Shown here: one piece after another, positions 14,813-61,788 of the stretch | Layout: each line of letters starts with the position of its first letter | How positions within the stretch are numbered: position 1 is the first letter of the stretch | Position numbers and translations under genes: made by a program | Source: a virus | Lineage: Duplodnaviria; Caudoviricetes | Reading direction: 5' to 3' (one strand) | Virus record (IMG/VR): IMGVR_UViG_3300035190_000444 | Location: 1 to 64,000 of that record | DNA: 64,000 nucleotides | Notes under the pieces: generated by a model | The model's input: only the letters and a program-made list of their open reading frames with translations | Databases searched by the model: none | What the model was told of the DNA's origin: nothing

Positions 14813-15465
14813 CTTAAACCTGCAATTGTTAACATTGCAATTAGTTCTTCTGATTCATGTACTTGTGTATGTTTTTCTTTGCGAATACTTTTTCCTGCAT
14901 GTTTTTCAAAATCATGATCAGTTACATCGTCAATAAAATCATCAGTTTTGTCACCACCATTAGGTCCGCCAATTGGATCGTTGTGTTTAGATTTCATTAA
15001 ATCACGATCATTAAACTTTTCTGCTAGTTTAATTTCAGCACCAACTTGTGGGGGTTTAGGTGGTTGCTGTCCATTTGCAGGTTGTTGTGCAGTCTGTTGT
15101 CCGTTTGCAGGTTGTTGTCCATTTGCAGGTTGTTGTCCATTTGCAGGTTGTTGTGTACTTGTATCTTGTGCAAATGGTACAGGTTGTTGTGTAGTAGAGT
15201 CTTGTGCAATTGGTGCAGGCGGCTGAGTAGTTTGTCCAGTAGGAGCAACTCCCTCGGGTGCTTGTGCAGGTTGTGATGTAGGTTGACCAGGCAATGCTGT
15301 TGCAATAGTATATTTACTAGGGTCAGTTTGATCAGGTTGCAATTGATTAAGTGGCATTGTTATTTTAAGGTCTGGGTTATTAGGGTCAACTAACTCTGCA
15401 CCTTTAGTTGGGTCAATGCTTGCAATTTTATAATTCTCTTTTAACGTAATTTCTTTAATCTTCAT
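14809..15465 (-). CDS. Q/P-rich hypothetical protein (MKIKEITLKE start)
   Basis: 218 aa ORF with QQPANG repeats. Confidence 0.65.
   Translation of the reverse strand: MKIKEITLKENYKIASIDPTKGAELVDPNNPDLKITMPLNQLQPDQTDPSKYTIATALPGQPTSQPAQAPEGVAPTGQTTQPPAPIAQDSTTQQPVPFAQDTSTQQPANGQQPANGQQPANGQQTAQQPANGQQPPKPPQVGAEIKLAEKFNDRDLMKSKHNDPIGGPNGGDKTDDFIDDVTDHDFEKHAGKSIRKEKHTQVHESEELIAMLTIAGLR
15062..15154 (-). repeat. 18-bp coding tandem repeat (QQPANG)
   Basis: Repeated TTTGCAGGTTGTTGTCC units. Confidence 0.8.
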
Positions 15466-44743: not shown

Positions 44744-44774
44744 TTATTAAATTAAATTAACTTATAAGTATAAT

Positions 44775-45035
44775 ATGAGCATTGAAATATCCCCAAAAGA
44801 CTATTGGAAAGCAATGTGCCGAGATGAAGCACAGATGTATTGTTTATTCTTAGTAATAGACGGCAAGAAAGGATGGCGATTCCCTACTTATCGAGAATTA
44901 ATTGGACACGAGTCTACATATCATATAAGTATGTTAGGAGAATGGTATGAAGACGATTTAGTTGATACTAATTTATGCGATACTGACGATTTGTACTGTA
45001 TAGTACCAGTAAGGGATAGAAAAGATGACGATTGA
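44775..45035 (+). CDS. mini Lcl-C/DUF1566-like protein, paralogue 1
   Basis: DEAQMYC..GKKGWRFPT..PVRD. Confidence 0.75.
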   Translation: MSIEISPKDYWKAMCRDEAQMYCLFLVIDGKKGWRFPTYRELIGHESTYHISMLGEWYEDDLVDTNLCDTDDLYCIVPVRDRKDDD

Positions 45036-45276
45036 AATTTCACCAAGAGAAACATGGAAAAAACCACTTCCAAAAGATCAAGCACAAATGTATTGTTTAT
45101 TTTTTGAACACAACGGCAGAGGGTGGAGATTTCCTACTCTAGAAGAATGTCTAACTAACATGAGTGGAATTCCAACGATTGTTGGATGGTGTTGGAACAA
45201 AGAACGCATGGAAAGTGATGATTATAATACTGCAATTTGTGACGTAATTCTAGTTCGAGATGTTAAAAATGCATAA
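45025..45276 (+). CDS. mini Lcl-C/DUF1566-like protein, paralogue 2
   Basis: AQMYC..GWRFPTLEE..LVRD. Confidence 0.75.
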   Translation: MTIEISPRETWKKPLPKDQAQMYCLFFEHNGRGWRFPTLEECLTNMSGIPTIVGWCWNKERMESDDYNTAICDVILVRDVKNA

Positions 45277-45284
45277 ATAGTTTT

Positions 45285-45527
45285 ATGAAAATAGAAGAAC
45301 TTTTAAACGAACTAACCTTTCACGGCTCGCAATGCACTAAAGACTGTAGCGGACATCGCGCAGGATGGTCATGGGGTAAAAAGTATCCCAATCGTGCTAC
45401 TACTAACAGAGCTACTCATCAAAGTTTCAACAATGGTGTTGATATTGCTAATGCTAATACCAAAGTCGTTATGATGCCAAATGCACGTGGTGCAGGTGGT
45501 AAGTTTGTTAAGAAGCCTAAACCATAA
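45285..45527 (+). CDS. small protein with CTxDCSGH motif (MKIEELLNE start)
   Basis: CTKDCSGHRAGWSW; TAAATA just upstream. Confidence 0.65.
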   Translation: MKIEELLNELTFHGSQCTKDCSGHRAGWSWGKKYPNRATTNRATHQSFNNGVDIANANTKVVMMPNARGAGGKFVKKPKP

Positions 45528-45606
45528 AAGGCCCCGCTGTAAACTCTGCATTACACACATTTTCACACGAGTATAATTACATAAACATGTAATACGCTCA
45601 TACACA

Positions 45607-45635
45607 TTGACAACACACATATACACTTATATACT
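45607..45635 (+). promoter_or_regulatory. sigma70 promoter
   Basis: TTGACA-17-TATACT; a twin at 45946-45974 (TTGACA-17-TATAGT); both followed by ACGCATAAC. Confidence 0.65.
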
Positions 45636-45712
45636 ATACGCATAACACGTTATATGCAAATAGGCCCCGCTGTAACACATACACTAAATAATTTATCAAC
45701 CGGAGTAATACC

Positions 45713-45919
45713 ATGGAAACCATTTATACTGACAGAAGAATAGTAGAAACTGGATGTATGTTGTACATGCGGATAATATCAATCGATTCTAGCATTACTG
45801 TTTATGCTTTTAAACATGACGAGTTTCGTTGCGAGATGGAAATCTTTACTGGCGATAACTATACAGGTAACTTAGAAGAATGGTTGTTACTTCCTGTTAG
45901 TACAGCTGCATCGTACTAA
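45713..45919 (+). CDS. hypothetical protein (paralogue of 37271-37474)
   Basis: AFKH...RCEMEIF...EEWLLLP; GGAG RBS. Confidence 0.6.
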   Translation: METIYTDRRIVETGCMLYMRIISIDSSITVYAFKHDEFRCEMEIFTGDNYTGNLEEWLLLPVSTAASY

Positions 45920-46199
45920 AAGGCCCCGCTGTAACATAATAACACTTGACATACGTGTGCATATACTGTATAGTGTACGCATAACTACAGCAGGTGTCGC
46001 GCAAACTGTATTATCTATGCGCCCTATAACTGGACAGATGTATCACAGTGATGGAATTGTTGAACTGTAGCAACGACATAACCACCTACCCATTTGGATG
46101 AACATGAGATGTACCTTTACAAAACTCATTACAGGTTATGGCCCCGCTGTACACATAAGGTTAAAAGAAAGGATAACACCCTTACGACTGATTATATAG

Positions 46200-46442
46200 T
46201 TAGCATTGTATAATTAGTCCGCCGTCATATAAAAACCAGGACGGAGCTCGAGGTACCGGATGACCGCCTCTGTAATGCTCTAATGCTAAGACATGAAGAA
46301 ACTCAACAAATGTTCCATTGGCCTTTGCGGGCCAATATGACTTCTAAATCTAACAAAATATTCAAAGAAAGAAAATAAAATTATAATAATTGATATGAGT
46401 GCCAACGAATATAAAATTATTATAATTTAGGACTTTAGTCCT
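46200..46442 (+). other. structured non-coding element (ncRNA or origin-like; strand not established)
   Basis: Nested stems, a 7-bp hairpin and a 14-bp AT-rich inverted repeat. Confidence 0.5.
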
Positions 46443-46463
46443 TTATACCTAATAGGAGAAATT

Positions 46464-46682
46464 ATGATTGAACTAGCACCACTATCTGATTATAAGATGT
46501 CATATGACGAAGCTTGGTTGTACTGTGCTACTCTAACTCATAATAACAAATATGATTGGCGTATTCCAACTGATTACGAGTTTACATACAACGACGAAAT
46601 TGATGAAGAATCCTTTGATCAATCAGACGAACCACGTCCTAGCCATTGGCGTGTACAACCAGTGAGAACTAAAGATGCTTGA
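46464..46682 (+). CDS. mini Lcl-C/DUF1566-like protein, paralogue 3
   Basis: DEAWLYCATL..NKYDWRIPT..PVR. Confidence 0.75.
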   Translation: MIELAPLSDYKMSYDEAWLYCATLTHNNKYDWRIPTDYEFTYNDEIDEESFDQSDEPRPSHWRVQPVRTKDA

Positions 46683-46944
46683 GATTGCACCTATATTAAA
46701 TGAATATCTAAATTACGACGAAGCATGGCTATACTGCGCTACCTGTATACACGATAACAAATACGATTGGCGTATTCCAACTTATGACGAATATGAAGAT
46801 ATTGATGGAATTTCAATATCAGCATATGATGACTCGGATGAAGATGATTTTAGAGATAGCAATCTAAACAGCTTACCAACGGTAAAAAGTTTAAAATTCT
46901 TATCAATAAGAGTTGTACAACCAGTGAGGACTAAAGATGCTTGA
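46675..46944 (+). CDS. mini Lcl-C/DUF1566-like protein, paralogue 4
   Basis: DEAWLYC..KYDWRIPT..PVR. Confidence 0.75.
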   Translation: MLEIAPILNEYLNYDEAWLYCATCIHDNKYDWRIPTYDEYEDIDGISISAYDDSDEDDFRDSNLNSLPTVKSLKFLSIRVVQPVRTKDA

Positions 46945-47161
46945 GATTGCCCCAATGCCCGCCGGCCGGTTCTCATTTGATGATGCCTGGTTATATTGTG
47001 CTACACTAACATATAATAACAAGTATGACTGGCGCATACCAACTGAAGAAGAATTTTGTGATTACGAAGCAATTGATTGCGATGCGTTTGATCAGAATGA
47101 TGAAGGTCTTAAGATAGCTAAAGTAACACATAAAATATGTCCAGTGCGCACTGCTGATTAA
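46937..47161 (+). CDS. mini Lcl-C/DUF1566-like protein, paralogue 5
   Basis: DDAWLYC..KYDWRIPTEEE..PVR. Confidence 0.75.
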   Translation: MLEIAPMPAGRFSFDDAWLYCATLTYNNKYDWRIPTEEEFCDYEAIDCDAFDQNDEGLKIAKVTHKICPVRTAD

Positions 47162-47220
47162 AATACCATTTGTAAAGTCCTAAGTTTTGCGCTATAATAA
47201 TGTTTTATGTAAGGAGCCAT

Positions 47221-47511
47221 ATGCTAGTAGCCACTTGTCAATCAAAATTTATAACGTATGCCGAAGCTGTTATGTATTGTTTGTTTTTAGATCACCAAGG
47301 AAAGAAAGGCTGGCGGTTGCCAACTTTACTTGAATGGGCAGATACTGCAGATGGCAGACTTACAACTAATACATGGTATCGAGAGAGTACGAATGAAGAA
47401 CGAGCATTGCTTGCAAAACAATACAACCATACCCAGCAAGCTATAGAAGCTATGATTGAACCATATGAAAATCGTAAAACAGGTATAGCAGTTGCAGTGA
47501 GAGACAAATGA
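47221..47511 (+). CDS. mini Lcl-C/DUF1566-like protein, paralogue 6
   Basis: EAVMYC..GKKGWRLPT..AVRD. Confidence 0.75.
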   Translation: MLVATCQSKFITYAEAVMYCLFLDHQGKKGWRLPTLLEWADTADGRLTTNTWYRESTNEERALLAKQYNHTQQAIEAMIEPYENRKTGIAVAVRDK

Positions 47512-47735
47512 TAGAAATATTATCTAATCCACCTGGGATCAGTCGGAAATTATATAATCGCGATGCAGCTTTTTTGTATGTAATTACTCTAGTCCATGAT
47601 GGGCATGCAGACTGGCGATTTCCTACTCCAGACGAATGGGTTGAAGGTCCTTTAGCGTATATGGCATGGCATCAAGGAAGAATTGATAACGATAGATTTT
47701 TCAGCTATCACATATACCCAGTGAGAGATTTATGA
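47508..47735 (+). CDS. mini Lcl-C/DUF1566-like protein, paralogue 7
   Basis: GHADWRFPT..PVRD. Confidence 0.7.
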   Translation: MIEILSNPPGISRKLYNRDAAFLYVITLVHDGHADWRFPTPDEWVEGPLAYMAWHQGRIDNDRFFSYHIYPVRDL

Positions 47736-48031
47736 AATATCATAAACCATTAAGTGTACATTATCTACCAGTAGATCCAAATCCTAACAGGATGTCTTTA
47801 CATGAAGCAGTTATGTATTGTACATTCTTAGAGTTTGAAGGAAAGAAAGGATGGCGATTACCCACTAGTAGTGAAGTAGATGAGATTTATGCTCTCAGAG
47901 AAGCAACTCGGTGTAATTCGTTTATATACAAACCAAAGTATGTGTGGACACAAGATGATTTAGACAATCCGTCATCACACGATCCTCACAATCGCGGACG
48001 TGTATTGGCAGTAAGGACTAAGCATGATTGA
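47732..48031 (+). CDS. mini Lcl-C/DUF1566-like protein, paralogue 8
   Basis: EAVMYC..GKKGWRLPT..YVWT..AVR. Confidence 0.75.
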   Translation: MKYHKPLSVHYLPVDPNPNRMSLHEAVMYCTFLEFEGKKGWRLPTSSEVDEIYALREATRCNSFIYKPKYVWTQDDLDNPSSHDPHNRGRVLAVRTKHD

Positions 48032-48275
48032 GCATGCAAACGAATCGCCGCACAAGATAACATGTGACGAATCATGGTTGTACTGTGCTACCCTAACTCA
48101 TAATAACAAGTATGATTGGAGGATGCCAACATATGACGAACGAATGAAATTAGAATTCTTTGATACATGGGATATAGTTGACTATATTGGTAGGCCTAAC
48201 GCTGCGTGGTTAAACTATAATGCAACCTGTTTTATTATACCAGTGAGGGATATAAATGAAAAAAACAAAGTATAA
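48024..48275 (+). CDS. mini Lcl-C/DUF1566-like protein, paralogue 9
   Basis: WLYCATL..KYDWRMPT..PVRD. Confidence 0.75.
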   Translation: MIEHANESPHKITCDESWLYCATLTHNNKYDWRMPTYDERMKLEFFDTWDIVDYIGRPNAAWLNYNATCFIIPVRDINEKNKV

Positions 48276-48609
48276 ATCAGCTGAAGAAAAGCGTAAAGCA
48301 TTAGAAGCTGAGAAGCAATGGTTAGCTATGGCAAAGCAACACGGATTATCTACCAAACCATCTAGTTCTAAATCTCTTAAAGACGCACTTAAGAAACAGT
48401 CATATACTCCGCCTGCACCAACATATAGAGGTAGTGATAGTAAACCTCCCAGTTTAGTTACAACTACTAAAGGTGGCGGCAGTCGTATTGAACCTCCTAA
48501 GTATACAGGTACTTTGATTAAAGGATGTGCGCAAATGCACAAAAGTAATTTAGTTCCTGTTATCAACCAAGAGCAAGCAACTGAGATTTCACGGATGCGT
48601 AGAGGATGA
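48256..48609 (+). CDS. basic hypothetical phage protein
   Basis: YTG...G..QMHKSNLVPV...ISRMRR. Confidence 0.65.
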   Translation: MKKTKYKSAEEKRKALEAEKQWLAMAKQHGLSTKPSSSKSLKDALKKQSYTPPAPTYRGSDSKPPSLVTTTKGGGSRIEPPKYTGTLIKGCAQMHKSNLVPVINQEQATEISRMRRG

Positions 48610-48815
48610 TAGAATTCGCCCCAACGTTCTTCCCTCAGCTAACATATGACGAAGCATGGGTATACTGTCTTATATTAGAACATAATGGGCACAAGGATTG
48701 GCGCATGCCAACTCATAAAGAATGGGCTAGCAGAAATGAATTACTTGGTTGGTATGAAAACGCAAAAACTGTAAAGAAGTTTCGAATTGTTTGTCCAGTA
48801 AGGGAACAAATATGA
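48606..48815 (+). CDS. mini Lcl-C/DUF1566-like protein, paralogue 10
   Basis: DEAWVYC..GHKDWRMPT..PVRE. Confidence 0.75.
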   Translation: MIEFAPTFFPQLTYDEAWVYCLILEHNGHKDWRMPTHKEWASRNELLGWYENAKTVKKFRIVCPVREQI

Positions 48816-49225
48816 AATGGTTTAACCGAATATTCAATTGTAATGTATATTTAAAATTTGACGTACCTACGAATCCTTATGGCGACAACAGAGTGCGTTA
48901 TGTTGTAGGAGTCCCGGTTAATCACTATGAGAAAAAAATCATTGAAATCGTTTATACTGGACTATTATGTTCTAGTGCTGATGAAGCAACGATGCATTTG
49001 TTTATGCTGAGTAAGCATGATGGAAAGAGAGGATGGCGACTACCTACAATGAATGAAGCTATATACTGTTCGAACCTATCAGTAATTAGACATTTCTCTG
49101 ATTGGAATTCACTCAGAGCTCCATTAGAATTAGTTTTAGTAAGAGATGTTACAGAAGATGAGTATAACTATTACAATGGACCTATAACACGTTTCTTTAA
49201 GCAGTTTGCGCAGTGGACTTATTGA
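48812..49225 (+). CDS. mini Lcl-C/DUF1566-like protein, paralogue 11 (N- and C-terminally extended)
   Basis: DEA..GKRGWRLPT..LVRD. Confidence 0.7.
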   Translation: MKWFNRIFNCNVYLKFDVPTNPYGDNRVRYVVGVPVNHYEKKIIEIVYTGLLCSSADEATMHLFMLSKHDGKRGWRLPTMNEAIYCSNLSVIRHFSDWNSLRAPLELVLVRDVTEDEYNYYNGPITRFFKQFAQWTY

Positions 49226-49256: not shown

Positions 49257-50336
49257 ATGTCAAAAGAAGAAGTAGGTACAGGTGTAAGCCAAGAAGAGTC
49301 AGTTACGCTTAATGGCGTAACAATAACAGAAGAATCACATGCTGATGTATATGCCGAAGCACACGCAGGTGCAAGTGCGGAAGTAACTGATACAAGCGCA
49401 TCAGCAGAAGCACACGCAGGTGCAAGTATTGGCGCAGAAGCCGGTGCAAGTGTTACAGTAGGTGATGTTACATTAGAAGCTGAAGCACACGCTACTGCAG
49501 AAGTTGAAGCTACTGCTGAAGCAAGTGCAGGATGGACAGGTACAGATGTAGTTGTTGAAGCTAGTGCAAGTGTTGAAGCTCGTGCTGAAGTTGGAGCAAG
49601 TGCATCAGTTGGTAATGAAGATGTTGGTACAGTTAGTGTTTCGGGTGGCGCGTATGCTGAAGCTCATGCCGGTGTTGAAGCCGAAGCATCAGTCGGGTTA
49701 CATGGCGCAGAAGGACACGCAGGAGCATCAGTAGGTGCAAGTGTTGGTGTAGAAGCTAATGCAGTAGCAGAAAGCCATGGCGTGTCTGCTGAAGCAGGTG
49801 CAGGTGTTAGCATTGGATTACAAGCCGGTGCAGAAGTTGGAGGTGGTGCAACTGTACACGGCAATACCGTTAGCATAGGTGTAGAAGGTGAAATAGAGTT
49901 ATTAGCTGGTGTAGAATTTAATGCTGAATTATCAGTTGATACTACTCCAGTTGTAGACGCAGTTGATCAAGCAGCATTAGAGTCAGCTCGTTTTGCGCAT
50001 GAGCAAGCGGAAATTGTTGCTAAAGAAGCTCAAGAAGCTGCCCGCATTGCTAATGAAGAAGCTAATCGTATTGCAAGAGAAGCTCAAGAACAAGCAGATC
50101 GTGCAGCTAGAGAAGCACTTGAGCAAGCACAACGCGCAGCTAGAGAAGCACAAGAAGCATCTGAAAGAGCAATTAGAGAAGCACAAGAAGCATCTGAACG
50201 AGCAACTAGAGCAGCACAAGAAGCCGCAGAAAGCGCAGCTAGAGAAGCAGATCGTGTAGCTAACGAAGCTAGAGAAGCAGCCAATCGCGCAGCAAATGAA
50301 ATGAATAAAGCACTTAAAAAAGTAAAGTTCTGGTAA
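49257..50336 (+). CDS. A/E/G/V-rich repeat protein with C-terminal 11-residue coiled coil
   Basis: AEAHAGAS repeats then AREAQE.S.RA repeats; AAGGAG RBS; TAAATA upstream. Confidence 0.8.
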   Translation: MSKEEVGTGVSQEESVTLNGVTITEESHADVYAEAHAGASAEVTDTSASAEAHAGASIGAEAGASVTVGDVTLEAEAHATAEVEATAEASAGWTGTDVVVEASASVEARAEVGASASVGNEDVGTVSVSGGAYAEAHAGVEAEASVGLHGAEGHAGASVGASVGVEANAVAESHGVSAEAGAGVSIGLQAGAEVGGGATVHGNTVSIGVEGEIELLAGVEFNAELSVDTTPVVDAVDQAALESARFAHEQAEIVAKEAQEAARIANEEANRIAREAQEQADRAAREALEQAQRAAREAQEASERAIREAQEASERATRAAQEAAESAAREADRVANEAREAANRAANEMNKALKKVKFW

Positions 50337-52076: not shown

Positions 52077-52781
52077 GTGTTTCTTTTACTATCAACTAGC
52101 AACATCAAAACACAAAAAGGTGTTAAATTAGGATATGCTACTTATGTCTTACACTTATCACCATCTGATCTCAGTGGTGTTATCAACACTTGCCCAAAAG
52201 CAACACTAGGTTGCAAAATAGGTTGCCTAAACACTTCAGGTCACGGCGGCATGTACACTGACATTGAAGACAGTGTAGTTCAACAAGCTCGCATACGCAA
52301 AACAAAATGGTTTGCTACCGGACGCGACAGCTTCTTAGAAGCTCTAGTGCTTGACATCCAACGCGCAATCAAACAAGCTACGAAGAAAGGTCTTATTCCT
52401 GTATTTCGCCTCAATGGCACAAGTGATCTCTCATGGGAGAAATACAAAATTAACGGTAAGAATATCTTTGAACTATTTCCAACTGTTCAATTCTACGACT
52501 ACACTAAGGTGTTGCATCGTAAAGTTGGACACATCCATAACTATCATTTAACATTCTCTAGAGGCGAGTCTAATCAAGCAGAGGTTGATTATGCTATTGC
52601 TAACGGTATGAATGTTGCTTATGTATTTGATAAAACTCCAGCAACATACGATGGTATGACTGTATTTGATGGCGACGACACTGACTTACGATTCCTTGAT
52701 CCGACAGGTGTAATTGTAGGTCTTAAGGCAAAAGGTCGCGCACGTAAAGACACTAGTGGGTTTGTAATTAGAACAAAATAG
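52077..52781 (+). CDS. Gp88-like Cys-cluster protein (radical-SAM-like)
   Basis: TCPKAT.GC...CL..SG.G, RLNGTSD, FYDYTK, YHLTFS, GD..DLRF.D. Confidence 0.65.
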   Translation: MFLLLSTSNIKTQKGVKLGYATYVLHLSPSDLSGVINTCPKATLGCKIGCLNTSGHGGMYTDIEDSVVQQARIRKTKWFATGRDSFLEALVLDIQRAIKQATKKGLIPVFRLNGTSDLSWEKYKINGKNIFELFPTVQFYDYTKVLHRKVGHIHNYHLTFSRGESNQAEVDYAIANGMNVAYVFDKTPATYDGMTVFDGDDTDLRFLDPTGVIVGLKAKGRARKDTSGFVIRTK

Positions 52782-52788
52782 GATTATT

Positions 52789-53001
52789 ATGATTGAATCA
52801 GGAATAGGTTCTGATCATTTTCTAACATACGATGAAGCCTGGCTCTTTTGTATCACTACTACTCTCTACAATAAGTATGATTGGAGAATGATGACACGAC
52901 GTGAGTTTATAGAGTATAAACCAAGAGAAAAATGGTTCGAAGTCACCGGCGTGTCGCATTTAATAGCCCAGGTACTACCAGTGAGAGATGTAAATGATTA
53001 G
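52789..53001 (+). CDS. mini Lcl-C/DUF1566-like protein, paralogue 12
   Basis: DEAWLFC..KYDWRMMT..PVRD. Confidence 0.7.
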   Translation: MIESGIGSDHFLTYDEAWLFCITTTLYNKYDWRMMTRREFIEYKPREKWFEVTGVSHLIAQVLPVRDVND

Positions 53002-53245
53002 AAGAGATTTAGCTTACAATACACACTTAGAATACTTAGATTATTCTAACTATAAAATGGATTGGGACAGCGCATGGTTATACTGTGCTACCTGTACATA
53101 TAAAGACATGTATGATTGGCGAATGCTTACTCCATATGAATTTCGTAATGATCCATACATACACAGCTGGCATGCCGCTTCACGGAAGAATAACTTTCCA
53201 GCATTTGTATTACCAGTTCGAGATAGAGGCCCCGCTGTAACATGA
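52994..53245 (+). CDS. mini Lcl-C/DUF1566-like protein, paralogue 13
   Basis: AWLYCAT..YDWRMLT..PVRD. Confidence 0.7.
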   Translation: MIRRDLAYNTHLEYLDYSNYKMDWDSAWLYCATCTYKDMYDWRMLTPYEFRNDPYIHSWHAASRKNNFPAFVLPVRDRGPAVT

Positions 53246-53460
53246 GAATAGAAATATCACCAACAACTAATAAAGAATTTACATACGATGAAGCAATAAT
53301 GTACTGCTTTTTTCTTATTATAGACGGCAAAAAAGGATGGAGACTACCTACAAGAGAAGAATATAATTCTTCTGTCAAAATATGGGGATGGCATCAAGAT
53401 GATGATAGATCATCAACATCTGATCTTTTCAAAGTAACCCCAGTGCGGGACTCTGACTAA
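53242..53460 (+). CDS. mini Lcl-C/DUF1566-like protein, paralogue 14
   Basis: DEAIMYC..GKKGWRLPT..PVRD. Confidence 0.75.
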   Translation: MRIEISPTTNKEFTYDEAIMYCFFLIIDGKKGWRLPTREEYNSSVKIWGWHQDDDRSSTSDLFKVTPVRDSD

Positions 53461-53533
53461 ATTATCATTTGCTTACCAATAAATATTTTGCTATAATATA
53501 TTTTTATTTACAAACCTTACGGAGTACATAACT

Positions 53534-53740
53534 ATGGCACACGTAGAACATGGACCAAGATCCGAAAACAAAATGACTTATGATGAAGCAATAATGTATT
53601 GCTTCTGGTTCACTCACAATGGCAAGAAAGGATGGCGTCTTCCAACCTTTCATGAATTTCTAGACGGGAACTCGTGGTATAAGGATGCTGAGATTACTAA
53701 ACGCAAGTGGTACGTAAAACCTGTGAGGGACATAAAATGA
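53534..53740 (+). CDS. mini Lcl-C/DUF1566-like protein, paralogue 15
   Basis: DEAIMYC..GKKGWRLPT..PVRD. Confidence 0.75.
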   Translation: MAHVEHGPRSENKMTYDEAIMYCFWFTHNGKKGWRLPTFHEFLDGNSWYKDAEITKRKWYVKPVRDIK

Positions 53741-54054
53741 ACTTTGAAATAGCACCACGCGACAAATGGTTAGCAGAAACTCCTTACGACCAAGGAGCAA
53801 TGTATTGTTTATTCCTTGAAATTGATGGAAAGAAAGGATGGCGATTGCCAACTAATGAAGAAGCTGACATGTTAGTAAACACAGTAGATCCGGGTAATGA
53901 TTTTGAGAATCCCGAAGTCCTTCCAGAGTTAGAGGAGTTTAATTCCTATTGGTTTGATGCTGATCATTGGGGGTTTTGGACACACGAAGATACAGTTGAC
54001 GACTATGATCTTGACGAATTGTTTACTGCAATTCCAGTAAGGGACATAATATGA
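53737..54054 (+). CDS. mini Lcl-C/DUF1566-like protein, paralogue 16
   Basis: MNFEIAP..AMYC..GWRLPT..FWT..PVRD. Confidence 0.75.
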   Translation: MNFEIAPRDKWLAETPYDQGAMYCLFLEIDGKKGWRLPTNEEADMLVNTVDPGNDFENPEVLPELEEFNSYWFDADHWGFWTHEDTVDDYDLDELFTAIPVRDII

Positions 54055-54344
54055 ACTTTGAAATAGCACCAAAAACAACGGAGATACAAGCCACGTGGGA
54101 TGAAGCAGTTATGTATTGTTTTTTTCTTGAAATAGATGGAAAGAAAGGATGGAGACTGCCTACTAAAGAGGAATTAGATTATATCTACCATTCAAAAAAT
54201 GATTTCATTGATGCCTACTACTGGTCCTCTACTGAGTACAATGGCAGCAGCGCCTGGGGTCAGGTTTTCACCAGTGGCACCCAGTTCAGCTCCAGTAAGA
54301 ACGGCGGCAGCTACTACGTTAGAGCAATAAGGGACATAATATGA
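54051..54344 (+). CDS. Lcl-C/DUF1566 C-type-lectin-fold protein, paralogue 17; probable DGR target
   Basis: WDEA..YC..WRLPTKEEL..YYWSSTE...AW...F..G......K.....YVRAIR. Confidence 0.85.
   Translation: MNFEIAPKTTEIQATWDEAVMYCFFLEIDGKKGWRLPTKEELDYIYHSKNDFIDAYYWSSTEYNGSSAWGQVFTSGTQFSSSKNGGSYYVRAIRDII
54210..54335 (+). repeat. candidate DGR variable repeat (VR)
   Basis: 22 of 36 codons end in C and none in A (54210-54317); no template repeat seen in the window. Confidence 0.65.
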
Positions 54345-54418
54345 ACTTTGAAGTCGCACCTAACGGTGCTCGAACTGATAATTGCCATATGCAAAACTTA
54401 ACTGGAGAACTACGATGA
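54341..54418 (+). pseudogene. truncated start of another mini-lectin paralogue
   Basis: MNFEVAP then diverges and stops after 25 aa. Confidence 0.5.
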
Positions 54419-54891
54419 GAAAATCCCTATCACATAAAGAAATCCTAATACTAAAACTCAATAATCTTTTAGCTACTTCTGAATCACTCGAAGACAAACT
54501 TGTAACCGAGAATAATCAATGGCAATGCCGTGCAACAGTCCTACGCAGCGATATTCAAAATTTGATTGACTATGTAGAATGGTCGGTAGAAGAGAATAGT
54601 ATGAATATTGAAATAGCACCAAAATCTGCCGAGGAGTCATGTAGTTGGGATACTGCACGAACATATTGTTTATTTCTTAACTTTGATGAAAAAACTGATT
54701 GGAGACTTCCAACAAAAGAAGAACTAAATCAAATCTATGAATCAGATAATGATTTTCGTAGTGGTCGATACTGGGCTTCTAATGAACAAAGTGTAGATAC
54801 TGCTTGGAGTCAGAGTTTTGAAAATGGTAGCAGATACCCTAACTTTAAGTTCCACGGTGGCCTCTACGTTAGACCAGTAAGGGACTTATGA
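54415..54891 (+). CDS. Lcl-C/DUF1566 protein, paralogue 18 (62-aa leader fused to the domain starting at 54601)
   Basis: MNIEIAP..WD.A..YC..DWRLPTKEEL..YWAS.E...AW...F..G...YVRPVRD. Confidence 0.8.
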   Translation: MRKSLSHKEILILKLNNLLATSESLEDKLVTENNQWQCRATVLRSDIQNLIDYVEWSVEENSMNIEIAPKSAEESCSWDTARTYCLFLNFDEKTDWRLPTKEELNQIYESDNDFRSGRYWASNEQSVDTAWSQSFENGSRYPNFKFHGGLYVRPVRDL

Positions 54892-55133
54892 TTATTGATT
54901 ATATGATTGATCGTGCTCCGCCACGTATAGTAAACAACTATGAAGAGGCTTGGCTGTATTGCCTTACCTGTAATCATGATGGGCATAATGATTGGAGGTT
55001 ACCTACGGTAGACGAATGGCAATATTCGTCTACAACCTCAATGCCTTTAGAAGCTTATTATGAAAACAATTATTTCTTTAAAGTTGAACCGGCTATGCAG
55101 AATAAGGCAGTTCCGGTACGTGAAGTAAAATAG
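54888..55133 (+). CDS. mini Lcl-C/DUF1566-like protein, paralogue 19
   Basis: EEAWLYC..GHNDWRLPT..PVRE. Confidence 0.75.
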   Translation: MIIDYMIDRAPPRIVNNYEEAWLYCLTCNHDGHNDWRLPTVDEWQYSSTTSMPLEAYYENNYFFKVEPAMQNKAVPVREVK

Positions 55134-55220
55134 TCTTTACAAATCAACAAATAATTGTTATACTATATTTTTTTAAACACTACAGCAAGCAAGGCCCCGC
55201 TGTATATACAGGAGAATAAC

Positions 55221-55808
55221 ATGGCAACACGTAGCGCAATTGGTTATATGAGAAACGATGGTACTGTTCGGGCAGTGTACGTGCATTGGGACGGTTACTT
55301 ATCACATGTTGGTAAAACACTTATTGAGAACTATGACTTAATTGGTGTAGGCGATTTATGTGATTTAGGTGACATAAGCTCATTAGGCGAAACAATTGAA
55401 GATACTGAGTTTTACGGACGCGATCGCAACGAAGATGATATTGAAGCACATGAGTTTGCATCTGAACATGAGTTTGTAGATTGGTATGATGATTCTGAGT
55501 TTTTCTATTTAATAAAAGATGACACATGGTATGTGTCAGAACATTGCGCAGAGTTCTTGTTACTTGCAGATCGTTTAAAAGCTACAAAAGTTGAGTATAC
55601 CGATTATATTCGCCCAGATGAAACAACAACATCCTACAGTGCAAGAGATGCAGTAGTAGCAATGGTAGCTGATGGTGTAGTTGAACCAGTGTATATGATT
55701 AAGTTGTTACTTGATCGCATTGATCCAGAAACATTAGAAGAACTGTTGAAAGAAGAATTCAACATTGACGATATGATTCCAGAATGTTACTTTGAGGAGA
55801 ACGAATAA
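55221..55808 (+). CDS. hypothetical phage protein (MATRSAIG...YVHWDGY)
   Basis: AGGAG RBS before MATRS. Confidence 0.7.
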   Translation: MATRSAIGYMRNDGTVRAVYVHWDGYLSHVGKTLIENYDLIGVGDLCDLGDISSLGETIEDTEFYGRDRNEDDIEAHEFASEHEFVDWYDDSEFFYLIKDDTWYVSEHCAEFLLLADRLKATKVEYTDYIRPDETTTSYSARDAVVAMVADGVVEPVYMIKLLLDRIDPETLEELLKEEFNIDDMIPECYFEENE

Positions 55809-56068
55809 TGGCAGACGCTAAAGTTAAAAAGCCAGTTGTAAAGAAACGTATTGTAGAAGTTGACAACTACAAGATTCGTATTGCCGAAACAGACTTACCT
55901 CACAATGGTAAAGTAACATTAGATGGACCTCATATGCAAGAACGTGGTCCTAATTTAGAACTTATCGTATACGCAACTGCTAACAGTGACACATATGAAC
56001 CAGGTAGGCGATATGCGTGTTTCTATACACTAAAAGGTAAACGTACTGGATATTTTACAATCAATTAG
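55808..56068 (+). CDS. hypothetical protein
   Basis: Coupled ORF. Confidence 0.6.
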   Translation: MADAKVKKPVVKKRIVEVDNYKIRIAETDLPHNGKVTLDGPHMQERGPNLELIVYATANSDTYEPGRRYACFYTLKGKRTGYFTIN

Positions 56069-57840: not shown

Positions 57841-58014
57841 ATGGACCAAATACAACAATTTGAAGTAGACCAAATCACAGCAAGCCTTGCAGCTCAAGGC
57901 GTTACTAATTTTACAATGAAACGTGGTAACAACTGTGTTTGGGTTTCACATGGTAGAGTAGATTCTTACTACATTTTTCGCGATGAGAAATTAGTTGATG
58001 TGCAAATTGACTAA
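57841..58014 (+). CDS. small hypothetical protein (57 aa)
   Basis: Not in track; GGAG RBS after promoter; MDQIQQFEV...VDVQID. Confidence 0.6.
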   Translation: MDQIQQFEVDQITASLAAQGVTNFTMKRGNNCVWVSHGRVDSYYIFRDEKLVDVQID

Positions 58015-58021
58015 ACTTAAT

Positions 58022-58231
58022 ATGGCAGTAGGTATTAAATCACCTCAACGGATGCCATATGATGAAGCATTTCTTTATTGTATGACATCTAACGAGAATG
58101 GATACAAAGATTGGCGGTTACCATTTGAACACGAAACTAGAGACTTAACAACTTTACTCATTTGGTGTAATGAAGATATTTTTAAAGATACTGACCATCA
58201 ATATTATGCGATCCCAGTAAGAACGGTTTAA
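58022..58231 (+). CDS. mini Lcl-C/DUF1566-like protein, paralogue 20
   Basis: DEAFLYC..GYKDWRLP..PVR. Confidence 0.75.
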   Translation: MAVGIKSPQRMPYDEAFLYCMTSNENGYKDWRLPFEHETRDLTTLLIWCNEDIFKDTDHQYYAIPVRTV

Positions 58232-61312: not shown

Positions 61313-61528
61313 ATGCCTACTGTTACTGTTACTGATGAAAAGTTAATTGAAATGTTTAGCGAAGCTAAAATCCTTGTACAAGGTGATGACTCCTATGTAA
61401 TTGATTTTGCAGATGCTGAAGAGATCCATGTACATCACGAAGACACTGGCGAGGAGTTTGTATTGTCATATGACGACATTGATCTTGAACATGACTTAGT
61501 ATATGGCTTAACTCTTTTAAATAGATGA
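61313..61528 (+). CDS. acidic hypothetical protein
   Basis: Promoter plus AAGGAG RBS. Confidence 0.6.
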   Translation: MPTVTVTDEKLIEMFSEAKILVQGDDSYVIDFADAEEIHVHHEDTGEEFVLSYDDIDLEHDLVYGLTLLNR

Positions 61529-61788
61529 TTAAGTACGCAGACAATTTGACCACTGAACCTTTTCGAAAAGGTTCATTTAAACCCAAACACAAGATGTCTC
61601 TTGACGAAGCAGTAATGTTTGTTACGTTTTATGAGGAAGACGGCATTAAAGGTTGGCGTCTTCCAACAGAACAAGAGTCTATAAACAACCCAGACCTTAT
61701 AGGTTGTTGGCATCAAGAAGATTTAAACACCAGCTGGCCACCCGATGAGCATTACTATGTACGTCCAGTTAAGGACATTACTCCTTAG
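61525..61788 (+). CDS. mini Lcl-C/DUF1566-like protein, paralogue 21
   Basis: DEAVMF..GIKGWRLPT..YYVRPVKD. Confidence 0.75.
   Translation: MIKYADNLTTEPFRKGSFKPKHKMSLDEAVMFVTFYEEDGIKGWRLPTEQESINNPDLIGCWHQEDLNTSWPPDEHYYVRPVKDITP

Follow-up and report, generated by a model that had tools for sequence, protein, structure and literature searches.

The 64,000-nt window analysed here (positions 1 to 64,000 of IMG/VR virus record IMGVR_UViG_3300035190_000444; Duplodnaviria, Caudoviricetes) contains a small gene whose 3' part has the properties of the variable repeat (VR) of a diversity-generating retroelement (DGR), a system in which reverse transcription of a template repeat (TR) mutates adenines and the product replaces the VR. 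This gene, mini-lectin paralogue 17 (54051..54344, + strand, from the list of open reading frames (ORFs)), encodes 97 aa plus a stop codon and comprises a single Lcl_C/DUF1566 (C-type-lectin-fold) domain and no other domain. It is followed on the same strand by a truncated paralogue start containing a short stem-loop, and then by mini-lectin paralogue 18 (54601..54891), which bears an eroded VR at 54769-54876. The window belongs to an 88.6-kb contig (G000) that carries ribonucleotide reductase, tail-fibre, baseplate and virion proteins and is a phage fragment, with a CheckV completeness of about 25%. A relative, G001, is colinear with G000 at 77-99% identity; its 372-kb record has terminal repeats and a completeness rating of 100%. 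The stretch is present in 20 lake-water or freshwater metagenome runs, and its source is a freshwater jumbo phage. A blastn search (distant setting) with positions 53000-56000 gave no match among 50,697 phage records.

Paralogue 17 matches Pfam family PF07603 Lcl_C (formerly DUF1566) at E 4.7e-13 with 49.9 bits, above the curated gathering threshold of 34.9; paralogue 18 matches it at E 3e-15 (57.0 bits). A profile of 29 homologues matches PDB chain 8q4e_A at E 3.5e-10. The AlphaFold2 model computed from the homologue alignment (pLDDT 95.1) has the same chain, the C-terminal domain of Legionella Lcl, as its top Foldseek match (TMq 0.84, E 2.5e-6), and snake-venom C-type-lectin-like chains come next. 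Thus, paralogue 17 is a minimal C-type-lectin-fold domain standing alone. Its VR spans codons 57-92 of 97, that is, the 3' end of the ORF.

The codon endings of this segment had been singled out by an earlier, sequence-only reading, and its count is borne out: in the frame of gene 54051-54344, the 36 codons of 54210-54317 end in C 22 times, in T eight times, in G six times and never in A. The first 53 codons of the same gene have A (21), T (17), G (10) and C (5) in the third position, and over 87 non-overlapping ORFs of at least 100 aa on the contig the third-position frequencies are 12.8% C, 37.2% A, 38.4% T and 11.6% G. Against the latter background, the binomial probability is 1.3e-11 for 22 or more C endings in 36 codons and 5e-8 for no A ending. 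No more than 16 C endings occur in any of the 15,693 36-codon windows of the 87 long ORFs. A six-frame scan of the contig found other windows with at least 22 C endings only at 50187-50294 and 15206-15313, on the strand opposite to long listed ORFs; these are taken to be non-coding frames. The GC content at 54200-54349 is 0.51-0.52, compared with 0.37 for the genome. The C-rich pattern is therefore real and well past chance. The codons for YWSSTE, G, AW, Q, F, G, Q, K, G and YVR are fixed and interleave with NNC/NNT codons, as that reading had stated.

A template of the kind predicted from these codons exists. A metagenome scan anchored on the 18-mer at the start of the VR returned 12 loci, one of which, L063 (a contig of 1,822 nt), carries on its minus strand, in this order, a lectin gene's 3' end, which includes a VR of its own, then a GC-rich hairpin, an accessory gene of 116 aa, a TR and a reverse transcriptase (RT) gene. 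The TR has AAC or AAT at every variable codon, and by eye it departs from the predicted template in one codon, the third after GAG, which is GGC and not AAC. The accessory gene (L063:1128-1475, minus strand) is bAvd-like: its product matches phrog_3206, 'Avd protein of DGR', at E 9.9e-15, and Pfam bAvd at E 2e-8 with 35.1 bits, under the curated cut-off of 40. The RT ORF, which begins about 30 nt after the end of the TR, is 274 aa long and open at its 3' end; it matches PF00078 (RVT_1) at E 2.4e-13 and phrog_1423 (reverse transcriptase) at E 1.3e-83. The motifs IGNLSSQ and YVDD, which we take to be hallmarks of DGR-type RTs, are visible in its translation. L063 is thus a canonical DGR cassette of the form target-Avd-TR-RT. 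The cassette's own VR (minus strand, from about 1796 downwards) is one codon shorter than its TR (from 941 downwards), an AAC being absent before TAC GTT; when this gap is allowed, every difference between the two lies, by eye, at an adenine.

The VR core of paralogue 17 (54219..54326, + strand) is colinear with the L063 TR and aligns with it without gaps. Over the 107 nt of 54219-54325 there are 20 differences: each falls at a template adenine (20 of the 44), and the 63 other positions are all unchanged. This is the adenine-only pattern that had been expected before any template was at hand. The changes comprise 11 A>G, six A>T and three A>C, and the random chance that all 20 mismatches strike adenines is about (44/107)^20, or approximately 2e-8. 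The last base of the core, 54326, is the first non-adenine difference, which brings the total for paralogue 17 to 1 of 64. By eye, the match extends 5' to 54213 with three more changes at adenines and no other change. Among 21 unique VR-like sequences of template length, paralogue 17 has the sole VR with zero non-adenine mismatches; summed over all 21, the sequences differ from the TR in 410 of 924 adenine cells and in 120 of 1,323 non-adenine cells. Hence, 54219-54326 is almost certainly a genuine DGR-written VR at the 3' end of a stand-alone lectin-fold gene.

The 5' edge of the TR homology lies at 54204..54218 (+ strand), where the window reads TTCATTGATGCCTAC and the TR TTCGTTGGTAACAAC, with two G>A differences at non-adenine positions. 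This segment was probably outside the last homing tract. Its 15 nt are identical in an orthologue found in L052 and L005, which shares a 40-nt upstream flank with paralogue 17 without any difference and bears a different VR derived from a second template variant, in which ATG TCR replaces TTC AAC. The VR-start 18-mer occurs at nine loci in IMG/VR, which form a VR-like family differing mainly at codon positions 1-2; there is no template among these nine.

Some of the sequences with the same 18-mer belong elsewhere. L002, L004, L006 and L009 (IMG/VR; phage records of about 35 kb) and L050 (a bacterial metagenome-assembled genome) encode proteins of about 140 aa whose C-terminal segments vary in DGR style around GCG TGG ... 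TTG CGT ATG AGT ... GTT CGT CCG. These loci were set aside as a different, Bacteroidota-type VR family marked by GCG TGG ... TTG CGT ATG AGT. No RT was found in G003 or in G004, a provirus rated 99% complete with two such genes, and a pattern search for RT motifs in L002-L009 gave no match. The variable segments of these proteins may be further orphan VRs.

Paralogue 18 carries a colinear but eroded copy of the VR, which supports the earlier reading of it as an older DGR product: relative to the L063 TR it has changed at 19 of 64 non-adenine positions, against 1 of 64 in paralogue 17, and at 21 of 44 adenines. Fourteen of the 19 non-adenine changes fall at codon position 3 and are mostly C>T or C>A. 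The VR of its orthologue in contig L057 is not eroded. Paralogue 18 may start at 54415, with an in-frame extension of 62 aa that has no Pfam or PHROG match, and may thus be a 158-aa fusion with this upstream stretch. In runs X20 and X12, some contigs join paralogue 17 to paralogue 18 with omission of 436-638 nt (joints 54070-54709, 54091-54663 and 54263-54700); these may represent hybrid paralogues, other variants of the array or assembly chimeras.

Downstream of the VR, the homology to the TR stops within GTTAGAGC (54318-54325), after which the window sequence diverges. The 3' flank (54327..54355, + strand) is a tandem-array junction made up of the end of paralogue 17, an ATGA overlap and a truncated paralogue start. 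It is unlike the flanks of the VRs of L063, of L065 and of the type seen in the jumbo phage G002: the L063 VR and its TR have GTTAGAGCCACC in common, and VRs of the G002/L005/L052 type have GTTAGAGCCAYYAGATCAATCC in common. The truncated start (54341..54418, + strand) consists of 25 codons (MNFEVAPNG...) and runs into a stem-loop motif. Aligned with L057 and L005, it has the look of a scar left by recombination on the 3' side of paralogue 17.

The stem-loop GCACC-TAAC-GGTGC (54356..54369, + strand), which lies within this 25-codon stub, had been read as the hairpin that often follows a VR. The sequence is present where it was reported, but its fold is weak (DNA z = -1.86; 12 of 200 shuffles were equally good). 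It belongs to a stem-loop motif of about 22 nt (GCGAGCACCGCTAGGTGCGAGC and the reverse form) that recurs between genes in the phage family, 28 times in G002 but only once, in the opposite orientation, in G000; over 19 nt this single copy is identical to G002 copies. Seven of these 28 lie 10-58 nt after VR-type mini-lectin genes, while at least 14, about half, adjoin no mini-lectin gene. Examples of the 28 copies (loci L029-L045) are found in G002 at 237315, 237985, 238366, 240367, 324830 and 325851. The weak fold and the general distribution of the motif led us to reject the hairpin as a DGR cruciform; a general intergenic element, terminator- or regulator-like, is the better reading. In L005, one copy of the motif is followed, by eye, by a promoter-like TTGACA-N17-TATACT sequence.

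The two paralogues belong to a large family. By a jackhmmer census of six-frame ORFs, the contig has 44 mini-lectins, G001 has 50 and G002 has 82. On the contig, only paralogues 17 and 18 have the long YWSSTE...AW..Q.F..G...K...YVR segment; the suggestion that the other paralogues in general are older DGR products is thus not supported, as 42 of the 44 are devoid of any VR-type segment. Most mini-lectins retain only the N-terminal YDEA..YC....G...WRLPT half and the ..PVRD end. These Lcl_C-like genes encode 70-110 aa, often with ATGA stop/start overlaps, and form arrays at 44751-49222, 52768-55130, 57995-58228 and 61525-61785 of the window and, further along the contig, at 64599-65868 and 79173-83850. 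Between two of the arrays lies a highly repetitive Ala/Glu/Val/Gly-rich ORF of 359 aa (49257-50336); the opposite strand also has long open frames there. The huge mini-lectin arrays are candidates for sets of small diversified binding proteins.

The machinery that wrote the VR is not encoded beside it. No TR was found in G000 or G001 by an ungapped adenine-tolerant scan, which allows a mismatch at any target adenine, the best non-self site having at least 35 non-adenine mismatches in 135 nt, and none was found in G002 for its own four VR-like copies (best site, at least 19 non-adenine mismatches in 125 nt). PF00078 had no match in G000, in the complete, terminally repeated G001 or in G002, whereas the same search recovers the RT in records L064 and L065 at E ~1e-17. 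Searches of the three genomes with the RTs of Bordetella phage BPP-1 (Brt) and Bacteroides phage p00, by phmmer and hmmsearch with --max, gave a best E-value of 0.012 and nothing below 0.01; these two RTs recover each other at E ~1e-21 in the same search, and Brt is probably only a distant relative of the RT family described here. There was no tblastn match in G000-G002 to the Avd and RT proteins of L063 and L065. Thus, RT and TR are absent alongside the VR both from the 88.6-kb contig and from its complete 372-kb relative, which has an identical VR. The sequence-only reading had placed template and RT elsewhere in the genome or in trans, and its expectation agrees with this result as far as the contig and the complete relative are concerned.

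Cassettes of this kind are found in related phages. The IMG/VR RTs nearest to that of L063 are those of L064 and L065 (68-69% identical), and the flanks of both records are 91-95% identical to, and syntenic with, positions 178-187 kb of jumbo phage G002. L065 has a complete cassette next to tail-fibre-like genes, with a 325-aa target ending in a lectin-type VR, Avd, TR and RT; its VR and TR differ at 18 adenine sites and two other positions. At the syntenic place, G002 (179127-179459, compared with L065 3131-6037) keeps only residues 1-110 of the 325-aa target, and no VR domain, Avd, TR or RT of this cassette type was found there. Since G002 keeps a truncated target where L064 and L065 carry the cassette, the cassette is polymorphic within this phage family. 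L064 has ORFs of 131 and 487 aa at the syntenic place. A protein search with the L063 RT returned a 92%-identical RT of 371 aa (P0001), the longest contig being 11.2 kb. Three database proteins of the RT family (P0015, P0089 and P0092) are annotated with both PF00078 and PF07603, presumably because the predicted genes extend across the TR, which in translation resembles a lectin segment. The most likely carrier of the L063-type cassette is a jumbo phage from this family, not a host.

Taken together, the data indicate that on this lineage the VR of paralogue 17 is probably an orphan that is at present fixed. G000, G001 and the metagenome contig L057 have the same sequence throughout the gene, VR included. 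In four of four lake runs (tool years 2016, 2020, 2023 and 2024), the listed contigs over the VR, which are Logan contigs and hence drop rare variants, contain no other letter. G000 and G001 do not differ at all over the 443 nt of 54058-54500, while their flanks differ by about 2.5-4%, which suggests that this block was recently shared. The VR would have arisen in a relative or ancestor equipped with a DGR, where an RT copied a TR of the L063 type with adenine-specific errors and the cDNA took the place of the VR, so that NNC/NNT codons now alternate with fixed scaffold codons. On the lectin fold, the residues that vary would be expected to make up the face that binds the ligand. Recombination may then have carried the VR from strain to strain in a block of about 440 nt. 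Because the 3' flank has been replaced by a tandem-array junction, the cis element for further homing was probably lost.

An active remote target is the alternative that survives best, although we consider it rather unlikely. An L063-type cassette would then reside in the unsampled three quarters of the genome, or would act in trans from a co-infecting DGR-bearing relative, and paralogue 17 would still be rewritten, too rarely to alter the assembled consensus. Several observations weigh against fixation and in this direction. With the contig at about 25% of the genome, a cassette elsewhere in the same phage is possible, and low-frequency diversification would be invisible in Logan contigs. Of the 21 VRs, that of paralogue 17 matches the L063 TR best, and ungapped it does so better than the cassette's own VR, which has a 3-nt deletion; this argues for very recent homing and a close link to the L063 cassette. 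The VR also shows no erosion, in contrast to the 19 non-adenine changes of paralogue 18. In run X16, which holds the window's stretch, the loose ends of a 151-nt contig correspond to the upstream flank of the L063 TR and to the second template variant, so that the machinery co-occurs with the phage. The L052/L005 orthologue has a different VR behind an identical upstream flank. Contigs break in or near the VR in runs X11 (54251/54269) and X12 (54270-54275), which could reflect graph branching from variants or low depth; like dips in depth and stretches without cover, these breaks were not counted as evidence. The loss of an initiation of mutagenic homing (IMH) site at paralogue 17 is argued by analogy with BPP-1. 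In addition, passages of Wu et al. 2018 (PMC5758913) describe avd-TR-brt functioning in trans from a plasmid and non-adjacent targets as common. Nevertheless, the complete relative G001 has the identical VR without RT, Avd or TR, the VR consensus is unchanged across three assemblies and the listed contigs of four runs, and the 3' flank differs from the flank common to cassette-linked VRs.

A DGR encoded by the host, on the bacterial chromosome or a prophage, could also write phage VRs during infection. This would fit the lack of an RT in the phage relatives G001 and G002, and the trans action described in part of Wu et al. 2018 (PMC5758913) makes it possible in principle. However, a collection with a single genome per species, covering 185,579 species, gave no match to the TR-specific pattern (nor did IMG/VR), and the VR-start 18-mer led there to four loci, none of them a template. 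The best RT relatives in the same genomes are at most 54% identical to the L063 RT, compared with 68-69% in contigs syntenic with jumbo phage G002. L063 also gives the impression, from its sequence, of being AT-rich like the phage. A host-encoded origin is therefore very improbable. Finally, a recently imported GC-rich segment or a quirk of codon bias, with no retroelement involved, would suit the local GC content (0.52 versus 0.37) and the recent movement of the 443-nt block, which is identical in G000 and G001 while its flanks differ, but it is hardly credible, as it explains neither why 20 of 20 differences fall at adenines of an independently found template nor why this template lies between an Avd gene and an RT gene.

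A wider reading is offered tentatively, as rather unlikely. The lake jumbo-phage population might possess a 'communal' DGR, in which only some strains carry avd-TR-RT and the products reach strains without a cassette, including the one with the complete 372-kb genome. Transfer would proceed by trans-homing during co-infection or by recombinational exchange of VR blocks of about 0.4 kb. The arrays of 44-82 stand-alone lectin-fold genes of 70-100 aa per genome might then serve as a repertoire of small binders, whose DGR-written members would one after another become fixed, lose the homing signal and then decay. That a genome without an RT has a pristine VR raises the question of whether phages circulating together exchange DGR products or DGR activity. 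Within one phage family, the cassette is shown here to be present in some members and absent from others. The case further indicates that a DGR target can be recognised by codon endings alone and its template predicted nearly base for base before any template is known.

Among known systems, the DGR of Bordetella phage BPP-1 (mtd-avd-TR-brt; AY029185) is likewise phage-borne and retrohomes into a VR at the C-terminal end of a binding protein with the C-type lectin fold, and the L063 and L065 cassettes have the same gene order. In BPP-1 the single target, which encodes a tail-fibre protein and lies next to the cassette, is followed by the IMH and a GC hairpin. In contrast, the VR in the window adjoins no cassette and runs into an ordinary gene junction on its 3' side.

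Another close system is the class of DGRs with DUF1566-type targets, exemplified by the DGR of Legionella pneumophila and its target LdtA (Wu et al. 2018, PMC5758913). As here, the 3' part of the target gene has a VR that overlaps an Lcl_C/DUF1566 domain, the template codons are AAC/AAT and the cassette has the form Avd-TR-RT. Paralogue 17 differs in being one of 44-82 tandem mini-lectins in a jumbo phage and in having no lipoprotein signal (its N-terminus is MNFEIAPK), and the cassette is not on the same assembled molecule. Legionella exemplifies what passages of the same paper call category d targets (DUF1566/DUF823/Fib_succ_major), which have VRs of the CLec2 type, a class of C-type lectin (CLec) domain, and account for 14% of DGRs; about half of them are short DUF1566-only proteins. 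The paper also summarises the DGR of Treponema denticola, in which one TR serves many dispersed CLec targets in a cellular genome, and states that remote targets (more than 100 kb away) are not expected for phage DGRs. The present case differs from T. denticola in being a phage, with a genome of 330-370 kb that has room for remote targets.

Vallota-Eastman et al. 2020 (PMC7517822) describe CLec paralogues, such as Nostoc all3226, that keep remnants of TR-VR homology but have no RT close by, and propose that the diversifying components are removed after a variant has been selected. The graded TR homology of these cyanobacterial paralogues resembles that of paralogue 18 (eroded) and paralogue 17 (pristine and orphaned). 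They share a genome with a DGR, however, whereas here the setting is a virus and the complete relative has the VR but no DGR. According to excerpts of Iyer et al. 2021 (PMC7824862), the RT-diversified lectin-fold domain was not found in 224 jumbo phages, and the titles and abstracts of literature on DGRs in jumbo or huge phages, or on lectin paralogues of lake phages, describe no such arrays. A freshwater jumbo-phage lineage thus joins the hosts of CLec2/DUF1566-type DGR targets. The VR of paralogue 17 is a new case of this known class; what is unusual is its setting, a jumbo phage with tens of stand-alone mini-lectins, a pristine VR and a complete relative without a DGR.

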